A stretch of DNA of 64,000 nucleotides from positions 139 through 64,138 of the forward strand of contig CP070692.1 in assembly GCA_020353215.1 (NCBI GenBank). Reading direction: 5' to 3'. The notes below the pieces were generated by a model that searched no databases, had not been told where the DNA came from, and was given only the letters and a program-made list of their open reading frames with translations. Of the stretch, positions 30,017 through 38,761 are shown one piece after another; position 1 is the first letter of the stretch; each line of letters begins with the position of its first letter. The DNA comes from Deltaproteobacteria bacterium. GTDB lineage: Bacteria > Desulfobacterota > Syntrophobacteria > BM002. The position numbers and the translations under genes were made by a program.

Positions 30017-30337
30017 ATGGCGGAGATCATTCCCAATAAGAGGTTTTTTAGAATCGGTGAAGTTAGTCGGATCGTCGGTGTGCCAGCCCATGTGCTGCGC
30101 TATTGGGAACGAGAATTTTCTTTGGTTCGACCTCGGCGTAATCGATCAAAACAACGGTTGTACCGTCGGAGCGATTTAGAAATACTTCTGCACATCAAGA
30201 ATTTGCTCCATCACCAGAAATACACGATCGCCGGAGCGCGGAAGAAACTGAAGCCTGAGACCACCTCCGAATCCCTGGAAAAAACCCTAGAGGAGATCAA
30301 GGGTGAACTCGTGATCCTAAGACGATTGCTGGATTGA
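30017..30337 (+). CDS. MerR-family transcriptional regulator (small, HTH only)
   Basis: FRIGEVSRIVGVPAHVLRYWEREF is a MerR HTH. The start is taken at ATG 30017; the ORF opens at TTG 30011. Confidence 0.8.
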   Translation: MAEIIPNKRFFRIGEVSRIVGVPAHVLRYWEREFSLVRPRRNRSKQRLYRRSDLEILLHIKNLLHHQKYTIAGARKKLKPETTSESLEKTLEEIKGELVILRRLLD

Positions 30338-30916
30338 ATCCACTTTTTCAGCAAGAGACATATGAATCATAAGTCTATGAGTTGCATATCGTTTGTATTC
30401 TAGCCGTCCGGCCTCGATAACAATAAATCTAAATCCTTCATCATCCGTTTGCTCAACTGCAAACTCCAGCTCAAGATCTAAGCTGTTGAGGTGACAACTG
30501 GGCATGACATTGCATGCTTTACGGATGTTGGTCTTGATTTGCCGGATCGCAGGTAATAGTCCCAAATTGGAATATCCCGTTGTCACTGAGGAGTCTTGAG
30601 ACGGAGTCATCTTGAGCTTCACGAGATGTATCGTTCCTTTGGAAAATCCATCTTCTGCTCCTACTTCCAGACCAGCGACTTCAAATCTTACATCGGATTT
30701 CGAGTTCCTGACAGCTACAACGGCTAAATGAAGTTCAAATCTTTCAATTACTATCTTGAAATCCGCTGATTCAACGCCCTGTGCTGCCATAACTTCATCT
30801 TTTACTGCACGCACAATCTCTTCTACACTGAAGGTTAGTCCCTCTGCATAGCCTAGTGAAAGCCCTGAAACAAGGCTCAATACAATCAATGTTAATCCTA
30901 GTTTTACGCGTAACAT
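30317..30916 (-). CDS. Secreted/lipoprotein-like protein with two tandem Trypco2-like domains
   Basis: Signal peptide MLRVKLGLTLIVLSLVSG. Two about 80-aa units each show 'helix - hydrophobic beta pair (FELHLAVVAV / LDLELEFAV) - acidic loop - ...H.VKLKMTP / HRLMIHMS'. The gene is noticeably AT-rich relative to its neighbours (by eye). Confidence 0.5.
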   Translation of the reverse strand: MLRVKLGLTLIVLSLVSGLSLGYAEGLTFSVEEIVRAVKDEVMAAQGVESADFKIVIERFELHLAVVAVRNSKSDVRFEVAGLEVGAEDGFSKGTIHLVKLKMTPSQDSSVTTGYSNLGLLPAIRQIKTNIRKACNVMPSCHLNSLDLELEFAVEQTDDEGFRFIVIEAGRLEYKRYATHRLMIHMSLAEKVDSIQQSS

Positions 30917-31798
30917 AGAATACTCCAATACATTCGCCTGTGGATTGAAGACAGACTATGCTGTTAACTCACGCTAGCACGTTTGTCCTCGATATGGGTC
31001 GGCAACATTAGGTTCTAGTCTCTTCCAAGTCCTTGATTCTAGCTCTCCATGGACAGAGGAGCAATCCGGAGAAAGTATGGTTTTTATCTCATCCGTGAAT
31101 CTGTACGTTCTAGATACGCCCAGATAGGGGTGTTCAAGCACGAGAGTCCTGGCCCCCATTAGTCCCAAAGCGCCTGCTGACACCTGATTTATGGGTGTCC
31201 TGCCGGATGTCCACCTCGCAACCTTCGAGGTACTGGCGAGATAGGCCTCTGATCCGGGGCCCTGCAGTTGGTGGAACGTCCATCCTCACGGTCCCGCGAC
31301 ACCGGTTTGTGGATAGCACGGACCAGCTGACCTCCGCCCCAACTGCGGCTCTGCCGGCTCCTAGCATAGTTGGAGATTACTGAGGTCTGCTTTATATGCA
31401 GCATTAGTTAGAGACTCTAGATCGCACAGGGCAAGTGAGCTTGACCAAGTCAATTACAGACGAGACTGGGAAACTGTATTCTGCTTGCATGTGCTCTTAT
31501 AACCAGCCGTACGATTAGGTTTCGTGATCAGTACAATACTGGCCCCAGTGTGGTCTAACATTTGCATGGATGAGGCAACCGAGACCCAATCAATGAGAAT
31601 CATTACCGTAATACTACAGCACCCAATCTGTGCCTTAGGGCGGTAAATCATTGTATTCATTGCCTTACAGAAAAGTAATTGCATTTTGATTTCAATATTG
31701 CTATAGATACCCATGGCTCGTTTTACTAACGAAATTAAACGTATACGGGCAAAACCATCGCCTTGAGTTATGTTGCGGGCGTAAAGAGCGGGGTGCTT

Positions 31799-32194
31799 AT
31801 GGATCTTGTCTTGTCTAAAGAAGCAATAAACAATATCGTTGGCGTTCTTGATGAAGATCTGCTCAGAGCTGGCGCTGATTGCGCCCTTCTGGTCGACCGC
31901 TCCGGCAACCTCATTGTCACCCGCGGCGATCCAGCCAACCTTGATGTGGTGGCTCTTGCCGCGCTGTCCGCGGCGAATTTCGGCGCAACTTCCGAAATAG
32001 CTAAACTCATTGGCGAAGATGATTTTGCGCTGCTCTTCCACAAAGGGAAGAATGAGAATATCCATTTCACCAAAGTCGGGAAGGGTTTCATTCTGATCAC
32101 CCTTTTTGGCAAGGACGTGTCTCTGGGGTTGATTCGATTGAAGACAGCTAAGGTGACGGACCAGCTAATACCCATTCTGACCGGAGAGCAGTAA
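31799..32194 (+). CDS. mglB: Roadblock/LC7 GTPase-activating protein MglB
   Basis: LLVDRSGNLI...LAALSAANFGATSEIAKLIGEDDF...FH.G...SLGLIRL is colinear with Myxococcus MglB as I remember it. It ends 2 nt before mglA. The start is uncertain (TTG 31763 or ATG 31799). Confidence 0.85.
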   Translation: MDLVLSKEAINNIVGVLDEDLLRAGADCALLVDRSGNLIVTRGDPANLDVVALAALSAANFGATSEIAKLIGEDDFALLFHKGKNENIHFTKVGKGFILITLFGKDVSLGLIRLKTAKVTDQLIPILTGEQ

Positions 32195-32196
32195 CC

Positions 32197-32808
32197 GTGT
32201 CATTTATTGATCTGAGTAAGAACGAAGTACAGTGCAAAGTCGTTTACTACGGTCCTGGACGTGGCGGTAAGACCACGAATCTGCTTTACGTTCACCAGGC
32301 AATGACAGAGGCGGTACGTGGCAAGATGGTCACAATCGACACCAAGGGCGATCGAACGCTCTTTTTTGATTTTCTCCCCTTGGCACTAGGCAAGATTCAG
32401 AACCTTAGCATCAAGATCCAACTTTATACGGTGCCCGGTCAGGTAATGTATAACGCCACTCGCAAACTGGTGCTGAAAGGGGTGGACGGTGTGGTGTTTG
32501 TGGCGGATTCCCTCAAAGTCCAGAAGGAAAAGAACGTTGAGAGCTTAGACAATCTTAGACAGAATCTCGCAGAGGATAACATTGACATTGGGGAGATTCC
32601 GCTTGTCCTTCAGTACAACAAGAGAGACCTGGGAGGTTCCAATATTCCCATCCTGTCCGTGGAGGAGATGGAAGAAGATCTCAACAATAGACTTCAGGTC
32701 CCCTGGTTTACAGGAAGTGCGCTGAAGGGTGACGGTGTGTTTGAGACCTTGAGGGAGATCAGCAAGCGAACCGTGAAACAAGTGAGCCGCAAGCTGCTCT
32801 CCCGTTAG
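32197..32808 (+). CDS. mglA: Ras-like polarity GTPase MglA
   Basis: MSFIDLSKNEVQCKVVYYGPGRGGKTTNL (P-loop), DRTLFFDFLP, LYTVPGQ (MglA-type switch 2), KGVDGVVFVADS, QYNKRDL. It is near-colinear with M. xanthus MglA. Confidence 0.93.
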   Translation: MSFIDLSKNEVQCKVVYYGPGRGGKTTNLLYVHQAMTEAVRGKMVTIDTKGDRTLFFDFLPLALGKIQNLSIKIQLYTVPGQVMYNATRKLVLKGVDGVVFVADSLKVQKEKNVESLDNLRQNLAEDNIDIGEIPLVLQYNKRDLGGSNIPILSVEEMEEDLNNRLQVPWFTGSALKGDGVFETLREISKRTVKQVSRKLLSR

Positions 32809-32836: not shown

Positions 32837-34882
32837 ATGGATTTAACCGACGACACTCTGGCGAGTGTTGATGCCAGAGAGCTCGAGGCCGACATTGACA
32901 GGGCAATAGACGAACTCTTCGTACAGAAGGGAGGGGCACCGGACCCTGCATCTCTCGAAGAAGAGCCGCCAGAAAAGGCAGAAGAAAAGCCCGCGGAAGA
33001 ATCAACCTTAGACCTGGTAACTGAACCAGCAGTCGAGCTTTTGGCGCCGTTGAAAGAGAGCCTCCTCACTCTGGACTGGGAGATCAGCACCCACAATATC
33101 AGGGCCTTCGAGAAAGAGTTGCAGGTCGTCAGCGAAGACTTCGGTGAAGACCGTCACGGCATGGCAGTGATAAAGATGACCCAGGGGGTCCTTAAATACC
33201 TGCATGCCACCAAGGGTTCGGCTGCGCCCATATCGATCCAGTTTCTTCATGCGGCCACACGTGGCCTTGACCTTTTTCTGCGCGAGCCAGGGGCAGAATC
33301 CAGCGAGCGTGGTCGAGTCATGGAGGAGTTGCTTGGCCAGTTTCGGCGGTTAAAAGCCGAGATCCAGAAGTTGAAGCCGAGGGCGACGCCACCAGCTGAA
33401 GAGGTGGCAGCGGTGCCAGCGGTCGAGCCGGTTGCTCAGCCAGTGACACCGGAGGAGCCAGAGCCGGAACCATCAGTGAAAGAAGAGCTCAGCTTTGAGG
33501 AGCTTCCCGAAGAAAGACCATTGATGGATACACTTCCAGAGCACGAGCCGCTCCTAGAGGAATTCCTCGAGGATGAAGCATTCCCTGAGGAGACGCAAAC
33601 GGAGGACTCGCCATTCGATGACTTTCTCGAAACAGAGCAGTTACTTGAGGGTCTGCCCGAGGAAGAGCCGTTACTTGAGGATCTGCCCGAGGAAGAGCCG
33701 ATCCTTGAACAGGTAGTGGAGGAAGAGTTGGCTAGCGCACCGCTCGGAGGAGAAAAGCCAAAGCTAGACGAACTTCCGGAAGAAGAACCAGTCATAGAGC
33801 TTTCTTTTGAACCGGCGGAAGCGACTCCCGCAGGCGCAACAGCCCGAGTAGAGATTCCAGGGGCATTGCGGCAATTGACCCAGGAAACCAGACGCCACAG
33901 CAAGGAGCTGTCCACTGCGCTGGCGGCACTTACTCAAGAAACCGGCAATTTCTTTGGCCATCTGATGCAGACAGTCGCAGGCAAACCGGGTCTTGAGAAA
34001 CTTGAGAGTCTCTTTGGCAATGTCGAGAAAACCCTGGGAGAAAAGCTGACCAATGCACAGGCGCTTTCTGGGAATCTGGACGCAGCAGTAAGGAAACTGG
34101 AGCAGAGTTTGGGCCAATTGCAGGAAGGAGCTATTGCTCCAGGTTCGCAGGCTGTCATGAAGTCAGAAGTGGAGAGAATCCAGCAGGCGGTCCAGATTTT
34201 GACTAAGGTGGCGTCAAGACTGAAACAGAACCCGAGCGATATAGACGCCGAACAGGTACCGAACTCAGAGGATGCAAACCCTGATAGTCGGATTGACACC
34301 CCTGAGTTCAGCGTGGACTCATTGGAGTCCGAAGAAGCTAAAGAGACATTCACTCTCGAGCTGACAGACCAGTTGCCACCAGAGCCGAGTGGCGCTGCAC
34401 CGCCGTCACTGGACGCGATTTACCTCGCCAATGTCGCGGCCAGTACTTTGGGCCTTCCTACAGACAGGGTCGCGAATGTCTTCAAGATCTCAAAGGGAAA
34501 GGCGAAGGCTTTGCGCAAGAGAGGGTACGCAAGGTTGACCGACTTCAAAGCGGCGTTCCGCAGCCTCAAGCGAGGCATGACGGGCCCACTCGCCGACCAA
34601 GAGGTCAAGTCATTGAAAAGAATAAGATTTCCTCTGGTCACTCTCAGTCCGGAAACCTTGGGTAGCCATGGCATCAAAGCGACGGGCTCCGCCAGAGGTA
34701 TCGTCCTGTTCAGTACCGGCGAGCGTCACGGCGCCTTGTTTACTGATGAAGTCATGCAAAGGATACCTTACGATGTGATGAGCTACAGAGAAGCTGGCCT
34801 CTCCGGAGAAGTGAGCGGTACGGCGATCATTGAAGGAGACTTTGAGATAAGTGTGATTGATCCGGACTACGTGATCCAATAG
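32837..34882 (+). CDS. Acidic scaffold protein: Hpt-like N-domain - Glu/Pro-rich repeats - coiled coil - CheW-like C-domain (no kinase core)
   Basis: The Hpt-like helix VLKYLHATKGSAAPISIQFLHAATRGLDLFL has its His at 33203-33205. LPEEEPLLEDLPEEEPILE repeats follow. The C-terminal 157 aa (34409-34879) carry a CheW-like pattern (GIVLFSTGERHGALFTDEVMQ...GTAIIEGDFEISVIDPDYV). No HATPase motifs are present. Confidence 0.65.
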   Translation: MDLTDDTLASVDARELEADIDRAIDELFVQKGGAPDPASLEEEPPEKAEEKPAEESTLDLVTEPAVELLAPLKESLLTLDWEISTHNIRAFEKELQVVSEDFGEDRHGMAVIKMTQGVLKYLHATKGSAAPISIQFLHAATRGLDLFLREPGAESSERGRVMEELLGQFRRLKAEIQKLKPRATPPAEEVAAVPAVEPVAQPVTPEEPEPEPSVKEELSFEELPEERPLMDTLPEHEPLLEEFLEDEAFPEETQTEDSPFDDFLETEQLLEGLPEEEPLLEDLPEEEPILEQVVEEELASAPLGGEKPKLDELPEEEPVIELSFEPAEATPAGATARVEIPGALRQLTQETRRHSKELSTALAALTQETGNFFGHLMQTVAGKPGLEKLESLFGNVEKTLGEKLTNAQALSGNLDAAVRKLEQSLGQLQEGAIAPGSQAVMKSEVERIQQAVQILTKVASRLKQNPSDIDAEQVPNSEDANPDSRIDTPEFSVDSLESEEAKETFTLELTDQLPPEPSGAAPPSLDAIYLANVAASTLGLPTDRVANVFKISKGKAKALRKRGYARLTDFKAAFRSLKRGMTGPLADQEVKSLKRIRFPLVTLSPETLGSHGIKATGSARGIVLFSTGERHGALFTDEVMQRIPYDVMSYREAGLSGEVSGTAIIEGDFEISVIDPDYVIQ

Positions 34883-34952: not shown

Positions 34953-37208
34953 ATGCAATCGGAAAACGCTAACCAGCCAATCTCTAGTGACCTGTCTCAG
35001 ATCCAAGGGAAGATCGAGGAGGCCGAACTTTACTTAACTCAAGGACTCTTCGAAGAAGCCCGCCAAATCTACCAGAACCTTCTGGACCACATTGGTCCTT
35101 CGAGTCAAGAAGCTGGAATCAATACTTCCGCCCATCACGCCGGCGAAATGCAGCGCTCATTCATTAAAGAACAATTGGCGCTCATTGACCGTCAGGAGGC
35201 AGACTTTCTCGGAAAACCTCCAAGAGCCGAACCAGAAAAGCCAGCCGTCCCAGGAAAAGAAGGAGCTGCCCTCTTCAATCGAGGCTGGGCACTTCTGGAC
35301 ATCGGGATTTTCGCCGATGCGATCCAACAGTTTCATAGTGCCGCCAGGCTGAATTATCGGCCGGTTGAATGCCTGATGGAAATCGGCAAGGCACACATTC
35401 AACTCGGTCAACATAAGAAGGGAATCAAAGTGCTTGAAGAGGCCTCACGGCGCAAGGACATTAGTGCCGAGGACCGCGACCGCTTGTTGGGGCAGATGGC
35501 AAGAGCCTATGAAGCAGCGGCTGACAAGAAAAGAGCCCTTGAGCTTTATCGTCAGTTGGCTGTGCGGGATCCGTATGACGAGGAGGCAGCGAGCAAAGTC
35601 CAAAGCTTGAGGGAGGAAGGCCATCGATATCAACTCAATATGGCAAAGGTTCATCTGCAAAATGGACAGTTTCCGAAAGCAATCGAGACGCTGCGCTCTT
35701 TGCAGCAGAAGAAGGAGGCTCCAGGGCAGAAGCTAGTGCCTGTGTATGAGCAAATCATGCAACAAGATCCGAGTAATCTCGACGCGGTGATGGATCTGGT
35801 CGAAATTTGTAAAAATCAAGGTAACTTGCTACAGGCCAGCCAGTATCTGGAAAGAGTTCAAGAAGCCCGCCCACAGGACGGTTGGTGCCAGCAACAGCTC
35901 ACAGACATTTATACGATGATGCTCGACAGCGGCGCGGCCGGCCCCAACATCCGACTCAAGCTCGCCGGTCACCTTCTCCGATCTGACCAATTGGCCCGGG
36001 CCCTAGAAGAGTATCTGGAGGTGATGCTGGAGGACGGTGCTTACAAGATGGCCGCTTTGAACCAGTTGGGAGAGGCACTGCTGGAGCGCCAAGACTACGA
36101 TCGCCTTCTGGAGATATTGGGAGATGCGTGTCCATGGGTGGAGTCCACCGAGGAAGGAGCTGACGCCCTAAATTATTACTACCTATTGGGGATCGCCTGT
36201 GAAAAGAAACACTTCTACGATCAAGCTCAGGCTTACTTTCAGCGCGCCGTTTCCATTGATCCAGACCACAAGGGAGTACGCGCAAAAGTAGAAAACCAGT
36301 CCAAAGGACCGCTTATTTCCCATGGCAAGTCTTTCCTCCCTGTCCGGTTGCCCGAGAGCCTGGAGTACCAGATACAGGAGGACCTTGGACAAGACGAGAT
36401 TCACCAGGTTTTCAAAGTCCGCGAGGTCCCCGGGGGAGACTTTCGGTTGGCGAAAACCCTTTTGCACAATCATTCTGGGTCAGGCAAAATCAAAAATTTT
36501 GTTGCCCAATGGGCTTACCAACAGGTAACCATGGAAAACCGGAATATCATCCAGGTGTTGGACGTGGCTGGACGGGAGGGGCAGTTCTATATAATAACGG
36601 AAGATCTCCCGGGCAGCCTGGAGGAGTTGCTTAAAGAAAAGACACACTTGCCTTTGGCCGCGGCGGTTTGCATGGCGAGAGGTCTGCTCAACGCCCTCGC
36701 ATATGCCCATTCTCATAGAGGCACCGACGATACCTTGAGGAAAATCTTTCATCTCGCCCTGAATCCAAAACGGGTGTTCATCAGCGCCGATGGCGTAGTT
36801 CCGAAGATTGCCGATTTCGGCTTAACCCTCATGCTGGAGAAACAGCTAGGTTGGGCCCCCAACTACCAGGATCTAGCACCGTTCCAGCTGCAGTACCTGG
36901 CACCGGAACAGTTTGACCGCGTTCCTTCACGGATGCCTGATAAGATGAAACAAGCCGCAGATCTGTATACCTTTGGGGTATTATTCTACCAGATGGTCAC
37001 TGGGAAGGTGCCCTTCGAAGGGCCATCACCTGATGACTTCAAGACCCAGCATGCTGAACGATATCCGGTGCCGCCACGAGTGTTTATTTCTAGCATTCCC
37101 GCTAAACTGGATGAAGCCATCCTCAAATGCCTCCACAAAGATCCGAAGAAGCGGTGGCGCACGCCAACTGAACTAGATCTAGCCCTAGAGAAGATCCACC
37201 TGGGCTGA
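34953..37208 (+). CDS. TPR-repeat protein fused to a degenerate Ser/Thr protein-kinase (pseudokinase) domain
   Basis: About 450 aa of TPR-like helices come first, then a kinase fold. LAKTL stands in for VAIK, HLALNPKRV replaces HRDLKPxN, and ADFG, YLAPEQ, DLYTFGVLFYQMVTG and KRWRTP are retained. Confidence 0.8.
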   Translation: MQSENANQPISSDLSQIQGKIEEAELYLTQGLFEEARQIYQNLLDHIGPSSQEAGINTSAHHAGEMQRSFIKEQLALIDRQEADFLGKPPRAEPEKPAVPGKEGAALFNRGWALLDIGIFADAIQQFHSAARLNYRPVECLMEIGKAHIQLGQHKKGIKVLEEASRRKDISAEDRDRLLGQMARAYEAAADKKRALELYRQLAVRDPYDEEAASKVQSLREEGHRYQLNMAKVHLQNGQFPKAIETLRSLQQKKEAPGQKLVPVYEQIMQQDPSNLDAVMDLVEICKNQGNLLQASQYLERVQEARPQDGWCQQQLTDIYTMMLDSGAAGPNIRLKLAGHLLRSDQLARALEEYLEVMLEDGAYKMAALNQLGEALLERQDYDRLLEILGDACPWVESTEEGADALNYYYLLGIACEKKHFYDQAQAYFQRAVSIDPDHKGVRAKVENQSKGPLISHGKSFLPVRLPESLEYQIQEDLGQDEIHQVFKVREVPGGDFRLAKTLLHNHSGSGKIKNFVAQWAYQQVTMENRNIIQVLDVAGREGQFYIITEDLPGSLEELLKEKTHLPLAAAVCMARGLLNALAYAHSHRGTDDTLRKIFHLALNPKRVFISADGVVPKIADFGLTLMLEKQLGWAPNYQDLAPFQLQYLAPEQFDRVPSRMPDKMKQAADLYTFGVLFYQMVTGKVPFEGPSPDDFKTQHAERYPVPPRVFISSIPAKLDEAILKCLHKDPKKRWRTPTELDLALEKIHLG

Positions 37209-37531: not shown

Positions 37532-38761
37532 CTATTTTCTTTTGAGGAAGGAAAGGATACCCCCAGCCTTCTCTTTGCCGCCGACTGCTTGGAGGGCTTC
37601 CTGTTGAAACTGTTCCACGGTTTGATTGATGGCGCTGAGAATTGTCCCTTTGAGCTGGGGCTTTACAGGGAGTTTTTGCCAGGCGGCGCCTGGCTTTATC
37701 AAGGCCTGGATGCTCGCCGTCATCTCCTTCTCATTAAGCACCTCTGTCTGCTTGTGCAGGATTACAAGGATCCAGGCATTGAAAGAGTTGAGAATTGCCT
37801 CCTTACCAGGGGCAGAATCAGCTGCTGACTGAAGCATCCTGTGAATGTTGGTCTTGGCGTCTTTCGAGCAATCGTAGGTTCGCAGCAGTTCCAGTTGGTG
37901 GTCTGGCAACTGATTTTTCGCCTCTTGCAGCAGGGGGAGGGCTTGTGTGCCCACCGCCTTTTCCGAGATCTTCCGCATATTCTGCAGCACTTCATGATAA
38001 ATCTGGATGATGATGGAAGACTCGTTCCGGTCCCCCGGGGCGGCTGTGGGGCCGGACTCGCTCTTCTCGATTATGCCGGAGGAGATCAAAGAGTTGATCA
38101 CGCGGTAGACAACAAACTCGTCGTGCCCGCTGTCAACGATGATCTGCTGGACCGACCTTTTCCCGTCCACGAGTGAAATAACACGCCATTCGTTGGCGGT
38201 GAGGTTGACCGAGCTTTTCTGTTGCTCCACACTTCTGTTAATTTTGAAAACGACTTGGGGGTGTGGAATATTCTTCTTGAGAATGGCCCATTCATCTACT
38301 CGACGAGTGCCCTCCAGAATAATCTCCATGTGATTTAGCTCGGTACTAAATTCTGCGTCCACACTGATCTCCTGGTCCACATACTCAAAATCGCCCTGTG
38401 GCCACAAGAACAAGTCATAGAGAATGTCCCGTACCTGCTGATGAAGGAATTTTTTTAACGTGTCTAACGATATATAACCCTTTTCCACCAGGATCTTCCC
38501 AAGTCGCTCTTGCTTGTGTTTAGCTAGAGTCAGCGCTTTTTGGAGTTCCTGAGCCGAGATGATACCTTTGGCGCGCAGTAGGTAACCAAGCCTTACCTCC
38601 TTCTGGTTTCCAACTGCGTGGATGATACTGCCATTCTTGAAGTAGACCTTCGCCAATCGCCCCTTTTCAGCGATGGTGAGAATCCCTGTTTTCTTATCTC
38701 CGGAGAGTAGCTGAAGGATGCTGGCGAGATTGAAGGTCTCAATGTTGCCCTTCAGTGACAT
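37532..38761 (-). CDS. PATAN (DUF4388) domain protein with inserted MshEN/T2SSE_N-type c-di-GMP-binding motifs
   Basis: The N-terminus GNIETFNLASILQLLSGDKKTGILTI...VYFKNGSIIHA is DUF4388-like. Residues 57-109 read RLGYLLRAKGIISAQELQKALTLA-KHKQE-RLGKILVEKGYISLDTLKKFLHQQ. The PATAN second half follows (DILYDLFLWPQGDFEY). Confidence 0.8.
   Translation of the reverse strand: MSLKGNIETFNLASILQLLSGDKKTGILTIAEKGRLAKVYFKNGSIIHAVGNQKEVRLGYLLRAKGIISAQELQKALTLAKHKQERLGKILVEKGYISLDTLKKFLHQQVRDILYDLFLWPQGDFEYVDQEISVDAEFSTELNHMEIILEGTRRVDEWAILKKNIPHPQVVFKINRSVEQQKSSVNLTANEWRVISLVDGKRSVQQIIVDSGHDEFVVYRVINSLISSGIIEKSESGPTAAPGDRNESSIIIQIYHEVLQNMRKISEKAVGTQALPLLQEAKNQLPDHQLELLRTYDCSKDAKTNIHRMLQSAADSAPGKEAILNSFNAWILVILHKQTEVLNEKEMTASIQALIKPGAAWQKLPVKPQLKGTILSAINQTVEQFQQEALQAVGGKEKAGGILSFLKRK

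Follow-up and report, generated by a model that had tools for sequence, protein, structure and literature searches.

The question raised by this locus is what a protein kinase fold with a degenerate active site contributes to an operon that encodes a Ras-like polarity GTPase. The gene under study (34953..37208, + strand, 751 amino acids plus stop) is located in a stretch of 64,000 nucleotides from a Deltaproteobacteria bacterium of the class Syntrophobacteria (assembly GCA_020353215.1, contig CP070692.1, positions 139 to 64,138), denoted here as the window. It was characterized by Pfam and orthologue searches and encodes a tetratricopeptide repeat (TPR) protein with a C-terminal kinase-like domain, downstream of mglB and mglA. 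An earlier note, made from the DNA letters, had predicted a pseudokinase, probably intact in its fold and encoded in an mglBA operon; orthologue loops, substitution rates and a structural model support this prediction, and the protein is very probably a conserved, inactive pseudokinase. The best reading of its role is that of a scaffold rather than of a phosphotransferase. By analogy with known TPR partners of MglA, we assign a probability of roughly 60% to its being a catalytically dead effector or scaffold of MglA bound to guanosine triphosphate (MglA-GTP).

Protein architecture and predicted fold

The protein consists of a helical/TPR region (residues ~1-450), followed by a Hanks-type kinase domain (residues 472-751). 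Pfam Pkinase (PF00069) matches residues 472-736 with an E-value of 5e-25 and 88.8 bits, exceeding the gathering score of 31.7 for the protein kinase fold, and numerous TPR families are matched within residues 105-440. As residue 472 corresponds to nucleotide 36366, the TPR-fused kinase fold starts where the earlier note had placed it. The following parts are distinguished:

34983..35090, + strand, N-terminal helical hairpin, residues 11-46 (AlphaFold2 helices 11-29 and 33-46), with the class-wide motif EA-x-LY-xx-QGL
35265..35567, + strand, TPR block common to the whole class, residues ~105-205 (class-wide alignment; TPR_16 and TPR_14 matches)
35580..36302, + strand, extra TPR repeats of the window's family only, residues ~210-450 (AlphaFold2 helical repeats, predicted local distance difference test score (pLDDT) ~85-95)
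36366..37205, + strand, pseudokinase domain, residues 472-751 (Pfam Pkinase, Foldseek, substitution rates)

Residues E23, A24, Y27, Q30, F33, A36, R37, and Y40 of the hairpin are invariant in the family, and the hairpin is also conserved in sister clades. According to the class-wide alignment, the extra TPRs are not present in the orthologues of 530-640 amino acids found in other families.

An AlphaFold2 monomer model built on 46 orthologues (mean pLDDT 83.9) shows ~20 TPR-like helices and then a complete kinase fold, including the G-helix. In Foldseek, the model is closest to the PknB kinase domains from S. aureus and M. tuberculosis (target TM-scores 0.74-0.85); the top 30 are all kinase domains, mostly of bacterial PknB, PknA, and Stk1 (target TM-scores 0.73-0.85). 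The bilobal kinase fold is thus predicted to be intact, which bears out, at the level of a model, what the earlier note had expected of it.

Degeneration of the active site

The catalytic and structural motifs of the domain are located as follows:

36384..36410, + strand, degenerate Gly-rich loop LGQDEIHQV, residues 478-486 (aligned to GxGxxGxV of StkP)
36453..36455, + strand, retained beta3 Lys K501 in an RLAK motif (aligned with the VAVK Lys of StkP)
36510..36512, + strand, W520 at the alphaC Glu position (aligned with the canonical alphaC Glu, as in StkP; in AlphaFold2 helix 513-526)
36711..36743, + strand, stretch with a clade-specific 8-residue insertion, residues 587-597 (SHRGTDDTLRK), between alphaE and the catalytic loop
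36750..36773, + strand, degenerate catalytic loop HLALNPKR, residues 600-607 (read as cat ctc gcc ctg aat cca aaa cgg)
36813..36821, + strand, retained DFG, residues 621-623 (D621 and G623 invariant in the family)
36900..36908, + strand, retained APE, residues 650-652 (all three invariant across the class)

In the phmmer alignment to solved kinase domains, HLALNPKR falls exactly on HRDLKPQN of StkP and PknB. The catalytic Asp of the HRD motif is replaced by Ala602, and the Lys and the Mg-binding Asn of HRDxKxxN by N604 and R607. The Gly-rich loop reads G479-Q-D-E-I-H484, with Asp and His in place of the second and third Gly of GxGxxG. Both degenerate loops had been read in this way in the earlier note, and the nucleotide reading and the alignment agree with it, as they do with its statement that DFG, APE, the subdomain IX DxxxxG motif, and the subdomain XI Arg are retained. 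The latter two correspond to D670-x4-G675 in alphaF and to KKRWR (residues 732-736); together with DFG, APE, and the remnant of the Gly-rich loop they are invariant or nearly so within the family.

Three further features were added by the present analysis. The beta3 Lys, K501, is kept and the alphaC Glu, its partner in the salt bridge, is replaced by W520. The insertion lies inside HSHRGTDDTLRK (residues 586-597), where canonical kinases are gapped over those 8 columns, and the pLDDT drops below 50 at residues 589-591. A pseudokinase is defined by the loss of at least one of the beta3 Lys, the HRD Asp, and the DFG Asp, with an intact fold and a conserved state; in the window protein the DFG Asp of a competent kinase is present (D621) and the HRD Asp is gone, and the definition applies. 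By contrast, the six other Pkinase open reading frames (ORFs) of the genome are standard in their Gly-rich loop and carry H[RQ]D...N and D[FY]G, which makes the window protein an exception. As a separate observation, residue 523 (36519-36521), within the alphaC motif KWAYEQV, is Gln in the window protein and Glu in at least 90% of the orthologues, a lineage-specific change at an otherwise conserved position one helical turn beyond the invariant W520.

Fixation in the family and purifying selection

A search of the kinase region against 5.8 billion proteins yielded 112 orthologues with 58-69% identity in this region, after which the next matches drop sharply to 28%; with the window protein, they form a family set of 113. 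All 113 members read HL[AGSCT]LN[PSA]xR; at the site of the catalytic Asp they have Ala, Gly, Ser, Cys, or Thr but no acidic residue, and no member carries a canonical HRD...N loop, the reverse of what the earlier note had named as speaking against its prediction. H600, L601, and R607 are invariant and N604 is conserved in at least 90%; R607 and W520 are invariant across the class as well. The Gly-rich loop has the family consensus LGxDE[IV]HQ[IF], and H586, S587, H588, R589, D592, R596, and K597 of the inserted stretch do not vary. Position 501 is occupied by Lys in 112 of the 113 sequences, A500 is conserved in at least 90%, and D621 is invariant.

Among 13 species of the largest genus, the median ratio of nonsynonymous to synonymous substitution rates (dN/dS) is 0.127 for the pseudokinase domain, 0.116 for its C-lobe, and 0.135 for the TPR region, the differences between the parts being small. 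Identity to the window's orthologues amounts to 67% in the pseudokinase domain versus 54% in the TPR part, with the C-lobe as the best-conserved part. The domain is under purifying selection. These data also decide on one alternative, a recently decayed kinase, i.e. a strain-specific degeneration or an incipient pseudogene. Degenerate motifs alone would fit such a decay, but all 112 orthologues, which come from five genera, carry the same substitutions, the frame is uninterrupted, dN/dS amounts to ~0.13, and no other part of the protein is better conserved than this domain. Because the substitutions are fixed in all orthologues and selection is purifying, recent decay is ruled out and was rejected.

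Complementary loss of catalytic residues across the class

Three other families of Syntrophobacteria contain more distant orthologues; there, the kinase region finds its best match in a protein of 530-640 amino acids. These proteins have counterparts of the N-terminal hairpin, one TPR block (~105-205), a linker, and the pseudokinase domain; compared with them, the window's family carries ~230 extra TPR residues. An alignment of the whole class reveals common traits: the alphaC Trp, the insertion H-x-H-x-G-x-D-x3-[RK], Arg for the Mg-binding Asn, the motif APEQF, and a very conserved C-lobe. The three residues that define a competent kinase are distributed between the branches in two patterns:

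Beta3 Lys: kept in the window's family, lost in the other families (Q, L or C)
HRD Asp: lost in the window's family, kept in the other families (HLD; loop HLDLRPSR)
DFG Asp: kept in the window's family, lost in the other families (N[GQA]G)

The simplest reading of this alignment is that the common ancestor would already have been non-catalytic, without the alphaC Glu and the Asn, and that the remaining residues drifted differently in each lineage. Because the two branches lost complementary residues, a function common to both should need no phosphotransfer, and apparently neither ATP binding nor the Lys-Asp pair.

This pattern also bears on a non-catalytic nucleotide-binding switch, in which adenosine triphosphate (ATP) or another nucleotide would be bound via K501 and D621 and its occupancy would change the conformation. 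STRADalpha and the JH2 domain of JAK2 are pseudokinases that behave in this way. Such a switch would sense the nucleotide or energy state as well as MglA-GTP, and as a variant it is compatible with a role as MglA effector or scaffold. Besides the conservation of K501, A500, and D621, it draws on the fact that Lys and Asp are kept or lost together across the class, as expected for one common ligand; an internal Lys-Asp salt bridge, however, accounts equally for this co-variation and may explain the retention of K501 and D621 just as well. Moreover, Asp-Glu occupies the positions in the Gly-rich loop where phosphate-binding glycines belong, and this acidic loop argues against phosphate binding, while the alphaC Glu that would position the Lys is Trp and the Mg-binding Asn is Arg. 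Since the sister-clade orthologues from the same operon have lost both the beta3 Lys and the DFG Asp, nucleotide sensing is unlikely as a function common to the class; in the window's family, the near-invariant K501 and D621 may leave room for retained nucleotide binding. As an account of the protein, the switch is rather unlikely.

The same residues could be claimed for an atypical active enzyme, with relocated catalytic residues or with a kinase fold repurposed for other chemistry, as known from SelO (AMPylation) and SidJ (glutamylation) (PMC12599244). Lys and the DFG Asp are retained, and strongly conserved polar residues occur in and before the catalytic loop (N604, R607, and the insertion H-x-H-R-G-x-D-D). 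Against this, no acidic residue of the catalytic loop is conserved together with the DFG Asp class-wide; which half of the site is retained differs from clade to clade. In addition, the Gly-rich loop contains acidic residues, and nothing suggests an alternative active site. An unusual enzymatic activity is therefore considered improbable, and the non-catalytic effector or scaffold remains the preferred interpretation.

The mglBA operon and its distribution

The genes next to the TPR-pseudokinase gene are the following:

31799..32194, + strand, mglB (Roadblock/LC7, GTPase-activating partner of MglA), 131 amino acids (Pfam Robl_LC7 1.1e-11)
32197..32808, + strand, mglA (Ras-like polarity GTPase), 203 amino acids (phmmer E 7e-62 to the M. 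xanthus MglA structures 6hjh and 5ymx)
32837..34882, + strand, 681-amino-acid acidic protein with a conserved N-terminal domain, a Pro/Glu-rich linker, and a C-terminal CheW-like domain
37532..38761, - strand, PATAN (DUF4388) protein, convergent downstream (Pfam DUF4388 1e-35)

The first three genes and the pseudokinase gene are all encoded on the + strand, separated by gaps of 2, 28, and 70 nucleotides, a co-directional order that agrees with the location in an mglBA operon claimed in the earlier note; a promoter/terminator scan gave counts near the shuffled expectation and is uninformative on the operon. The mglB product also matches the NCBIfam MglB model (9e-16, under its cut-off), and its orthologues are 87-90% identical in L001, L002, L025, and L026. 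The P-loop GPGRGGKTT, the DRTLFFDF segment, and the TVPGQ motif of the mglA product align with M. xanthus MglA. The gene for the 681-amino-acid protein always lies between mglA and the pseudokinase gene in the loci examined. CheW (Pfam) matches the C-terminal domain of four of 11 orthologues (best E 4e-7); the window's protein itself has no Pfam match, and a profile of the CheW-like C-terminal domain found no matches among PDB sequences.

Full-length orthologues of the TPR-pseudokinase are confined to the window's family, where they occur in 19 of 21 other genomes from five genera. One of the two missing genomes, G005, is explained by a 200-N scaffold gap that cuts the gene (locus L054), not by a deletion; in G019, two contigs (G019:C27 and G019:C51) each contain a copy of the locus, with the same scores. 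Both are assembly artefacts that affect the presence counts. In the three other families, the proteins of 530-640 amino acids again occur in the order mglB, mglA, homologue of the 681-amino-acid protein, TPR plus kinase-like protein, and the identical four-gene order is found in L001, L002, L015-L026, and L036. The module of mglB, mglA, the CheW-like acidic protein, and the TPR-pseudokinase is class-wide. Its co-occurrence was tallied by the author from gene positions in 122 genomes of the class, which are related and not independent:

MglA and pseudokinase present: 77 genomes
MglA absent, pseudokinase present: 3 genomes, each a gapped or fragmented assembly from the window's family
MglA present, pseudokinase absent: 10 genomes, some with only a more divergent second MglA paralogue
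Both absent: 32 genomes

In 68 of the 77 genomes, mglA and the pseudokinase gene share a contig and lie within 5 kb of each other; in no case does a single contig carry them at a large distance. Both genes are missing from several whole genera and from one whole family of the class.

Outside the class, 400 genomes of the phylum contain related degenerate kinases in one other family only (f62), and none of these relatives (L027-L034) lies within ~9 kb of mglBA; among the genomes sampled, the mglBA linkage is therefore specific to Syntrophobacteria. A database locus search with the family alignment retrieved only family members (uncultured Syntrophobacteria and metagenome-assembled genomes (MAGs) labelled 'Deltaproteobacteria') and unrelated kinases. 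An all-against-all profile search uncovered a wider set of TPR proteins with C-terminal degenerate kinases of the 'HLxL' type, with loops including HLHLQPSQ and HLSLKASN; the clade linked to the operon forms one of its branches. The f62 kinases occur in two sizes, ~470-515 and ~1060-1135 amino acids, and match the class profile with E-values of 1e-47 to 1e-66. P0191 and P0219 combine TPRs with a loop of the HLHLQPSQ type; they and the f62 kinases point to a wider TPR-pseudokinase superfamily in other contexts.

In metagenomic contigs and MAGs of the family, the order pheS, pheT, merR, mglB, mglA, 681-amino-acid gene, TPR-pseudokinase recurs, followed on the opposite strand by PATAN, miaA, and mutL. 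This neighbourhood is relevant to a further explanation, a role in anti-phage defence as a kinase like PD-T4-6 or MADS6. The PADLOC models for PD-T4-6 (2e-36) and mad6 (1.1e-34) match the protein, as does NCBIfam MAD6 (1.1e-24, far below its cut-off), but those models match any Hanks kinase domain, and the catalytic residues are missing here. The surroundings are of a stable housekeeping kind (pheST, miaA, mutL, mreB), with synteny conserved in the class and no variable island; the three other module genes have no PADLOC match, and for the PATAN protein a marginal match to CasR (5.7e-4) is the only one. As neither an active kinase nor a defence context is found, this explanation is very improbable.

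A proposed scaffold gated by MglA

For the preferred reading, a cytoplasmic TPR protein with an ancient, conserved pseudokinase domain would serve the MglA polarity switch as an effector or scaffold. Its conserved N-terminal hairpin and class-wide TPR block would be the docking site of MglA-GTP, similar to two known partners: SgmX of M. xanthus, where TPR repeats 12-14 bind MglA-GTP (PMC7668184), and the TPR protein Bd2492 of Bdellovibrio, which forms a 1:1 complex with MglA (PMC3983030). A third precedent for the proposed role is MasK, a kinase whose gene adjoins mglBA and which interacts with MglA (PMC3546991). The pseudokinase domain, chiefly its highly conserved C-lobe, would be a rigid module for protein interaction or allostery and would recruit or position a partner, be it the CheW-like protein, the PATAN neighbour that binds cyclic di-GMP (c-di-GMP), or the type IV pilus machinery. 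Phosphotransfer would play no part in this mechanism.

Several observations weigh against this reading. The putative contact between MglA and the TPRs rests on analogy, and the match to the SgmX equivalog model NF052243 is weak and generic for TPRs (27.3 bits versus a cut-off of 1800, E 1.1e-6, on the C-terminal part of SgmX). The predicted template modelling score of the AlphaFold2 model is 0.60, which leaves the mutual placement of the TPR and kinase domains undefined. The genomes behind the co-occurrence are related, so that the counts are not independent. Finally, the almost invariant beta3 Lys and DFG Asp of the window's family hint at nucleotide or metal binding, because a purely structural scaffold does not obviously need either.

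A broader proposal, which we put forward tentatively and regard as less likely than its contrary, takes the four genes as a previously undescribed signalling unit. A Ras-like GTPase would gate a pseudokinase scaffold, a prokaryotic counterpart of Ras-KSR-type logic, and through this unit cell polarity would be linked to a CheW assembly of the chemosensory type and, for the window's family, also to c-di-GMP via PATAN-MshEN; the kinase fold would have been non-catalytic since before the Syntrophobacteria families diverged, with different halves of the dead site retained in each lineage.

To our knowledge, bacterial pseudokinases are recognized but almost uncharacterized, and none is known to be connected with a small GTPase. 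The partners of MglA described in the literature searched are TPR, response-regulator, Roadblock, and zinc-ribbon proteins, none of them a non-catalytic kinase fold, and a full-text literature search for 'MglA' with 'pseudokinase' found nothing relevant. A survey of prokaryotic Ras-like GTPases describes PATAN proteins near some mglA genes and mentions no Ser/Thr kinase-like neighbour. The locus provides an evolutionary argument for a non-catalytic role, composed of the same operon position class-wide, purifying selection, and complementary active-site remnants in two lineages. Its defined set of candidate partners makes the hypothesis directly testable with purified proteins, and MglA biology is extended to the strictly anaerobic, mostly uncultured Syntrophobacteria.

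Further features of the neighbourhood

At residues 57-109, the PATAN protein contains a c-di-GMP-binding motif of the MshEN type (NCBIfam NF053729, 3.7e-14, above cut-off). As a conserved neighbour it is restricted to the window's family; it adjoins the pseudokinase gene in L001-L004, L006, L008, L009, L012, and L026, and tblastn found no counterpart in the sister-clade loci L015-L024. Of the candidate type IV pilus partners, pilB, pilT, and pilQ are present in the genome, with scores above or near their cut-offs.

Upstream of the operon, the spacer between merR and mglB (30317-31760) measures ~1.46 kb and contains an opposite-strand ORF with a Trypco2 domain (Pfam 5.6e-13). As the spacer comprises only ~190-480 nucleotides in the orthologous loci L001 and L002, this expansion looks like an insertion specific to the window's genome. 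Loci of the Syntrophobacteraceae type harbor a conserved ORF of ~290-405 amino acids directly upstream of mglB on the same strand (L016:2358-3575, L017:3520-4677, L020:13571-14686, L021:3343-4503, L023:13473-14339), which is not present in the window's family; its product starts near ELTREQ-L-x-A-x-IAGRGP-x-YLRGV[DN]LS.

A second mglB-mglA pair lies outside the window (G000:C1:3602852-3604609), with an MglA 56% identical to that of the window. It is followed by a gene for a 219-amino-acid protein that has only the short motif LK-x-[ST]-LL-x-[LI]-DWEI in common with the 681-amino-acid protein; BLASTP between the two gave no significant alignment. Opposite-strand ORFs just upstream of this pair appear CheR/CheY-like, by their first residues only.

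Comparison with known systems

The closest characterized relatives are the Hanks kinases PknB, Stk1, and StkP (PF00069), with which the window protein has the bilobal fold (TM-scores 0.74-0.85; sequence E-value ~1e-18) as well as the beta3 Lys, DFG, APE, the alphaF Asp, and the subdomain XI Arg in common. In contrast to them, it has neither the HRD Asp nor the Lys and Asn of the catalytic loop, the alphaC Glu is missing, the Gly-rich loop has lost two glycines, and 8 residues are inserted before the catalytic loop. Its kinase domain is located C-terminal to TPRs, with no PASTA or transmembrane part.

A 2025 review distinguishes seven families of bacterial pseudokinases, ActPs1, ActPs2, ActPs3/MviN, GLW, CP1, DYD, and DLHK, with motifs that include GLW replacing HRD, DYD, and HRDLRPAS with GFG; its text contains neither 'TPR' nor 'MglA' (PMC12599244). 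The conserved bacterial kinase fold, the degraded catalytic motifs, and the presumed non-catalytic role are common to these families and the window protein, and like CP1 and DLHK the latter is cytosolic, without a transmembrane segment. Its set of VAK, HL[AG]LNPxR, DFG, and alphaC Trp fits none of the seven, compared by published motifs only, and no TPR fusion or link to MglA is reported for any of them in the review; the resemblance between the DLHK loop HRDLRPAS and the sister-clade loop HLDLRPSR is superficial. By its sequence, the protein thus belongs to the protein kinase fold family and qualifies as a pseudokinase, and by motifs it matches no described pseudokinase family.

SgmX and Bd2492 are likewise cytoplasmic TPR proteins. 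Both are functionally tied to MglA, whereas the window protein is connected to it by operon linkage; unlike the latter, neither has a kinase-like domain or is encoded in the mglBA operon. MasK of M. xanthus, a protein kinase encoded next to mglBA, interacts with MglA (PMC3546991) and thus represents another protein with a Hanks-type kinase fold adjoining mglBA. MasK is described as active and membrane-associated, and its divergent masABK operon also encodes a membrane protein and a lipoprotein (PMC3546991). Compared by description, the window protein differs in being soluble, TPR-fused, catalytically degenerate, and encoded co-directionally downstream of mglA.

In eukaryotes, KSR is a pseudokinase scaffold in a small-GTPase pathway, Ras-Raf-MEK signalling. 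The comparison with KSR is an analogy only, as homology is limited to the kinase fold, the accessory domains differ, and no cascade partner was identified here. What the two would have in common, according to our proposal, is a kinase fold that transfers no phosphate and serves as an allosteric or scaffold element downstream of a Ras-like GTPase.

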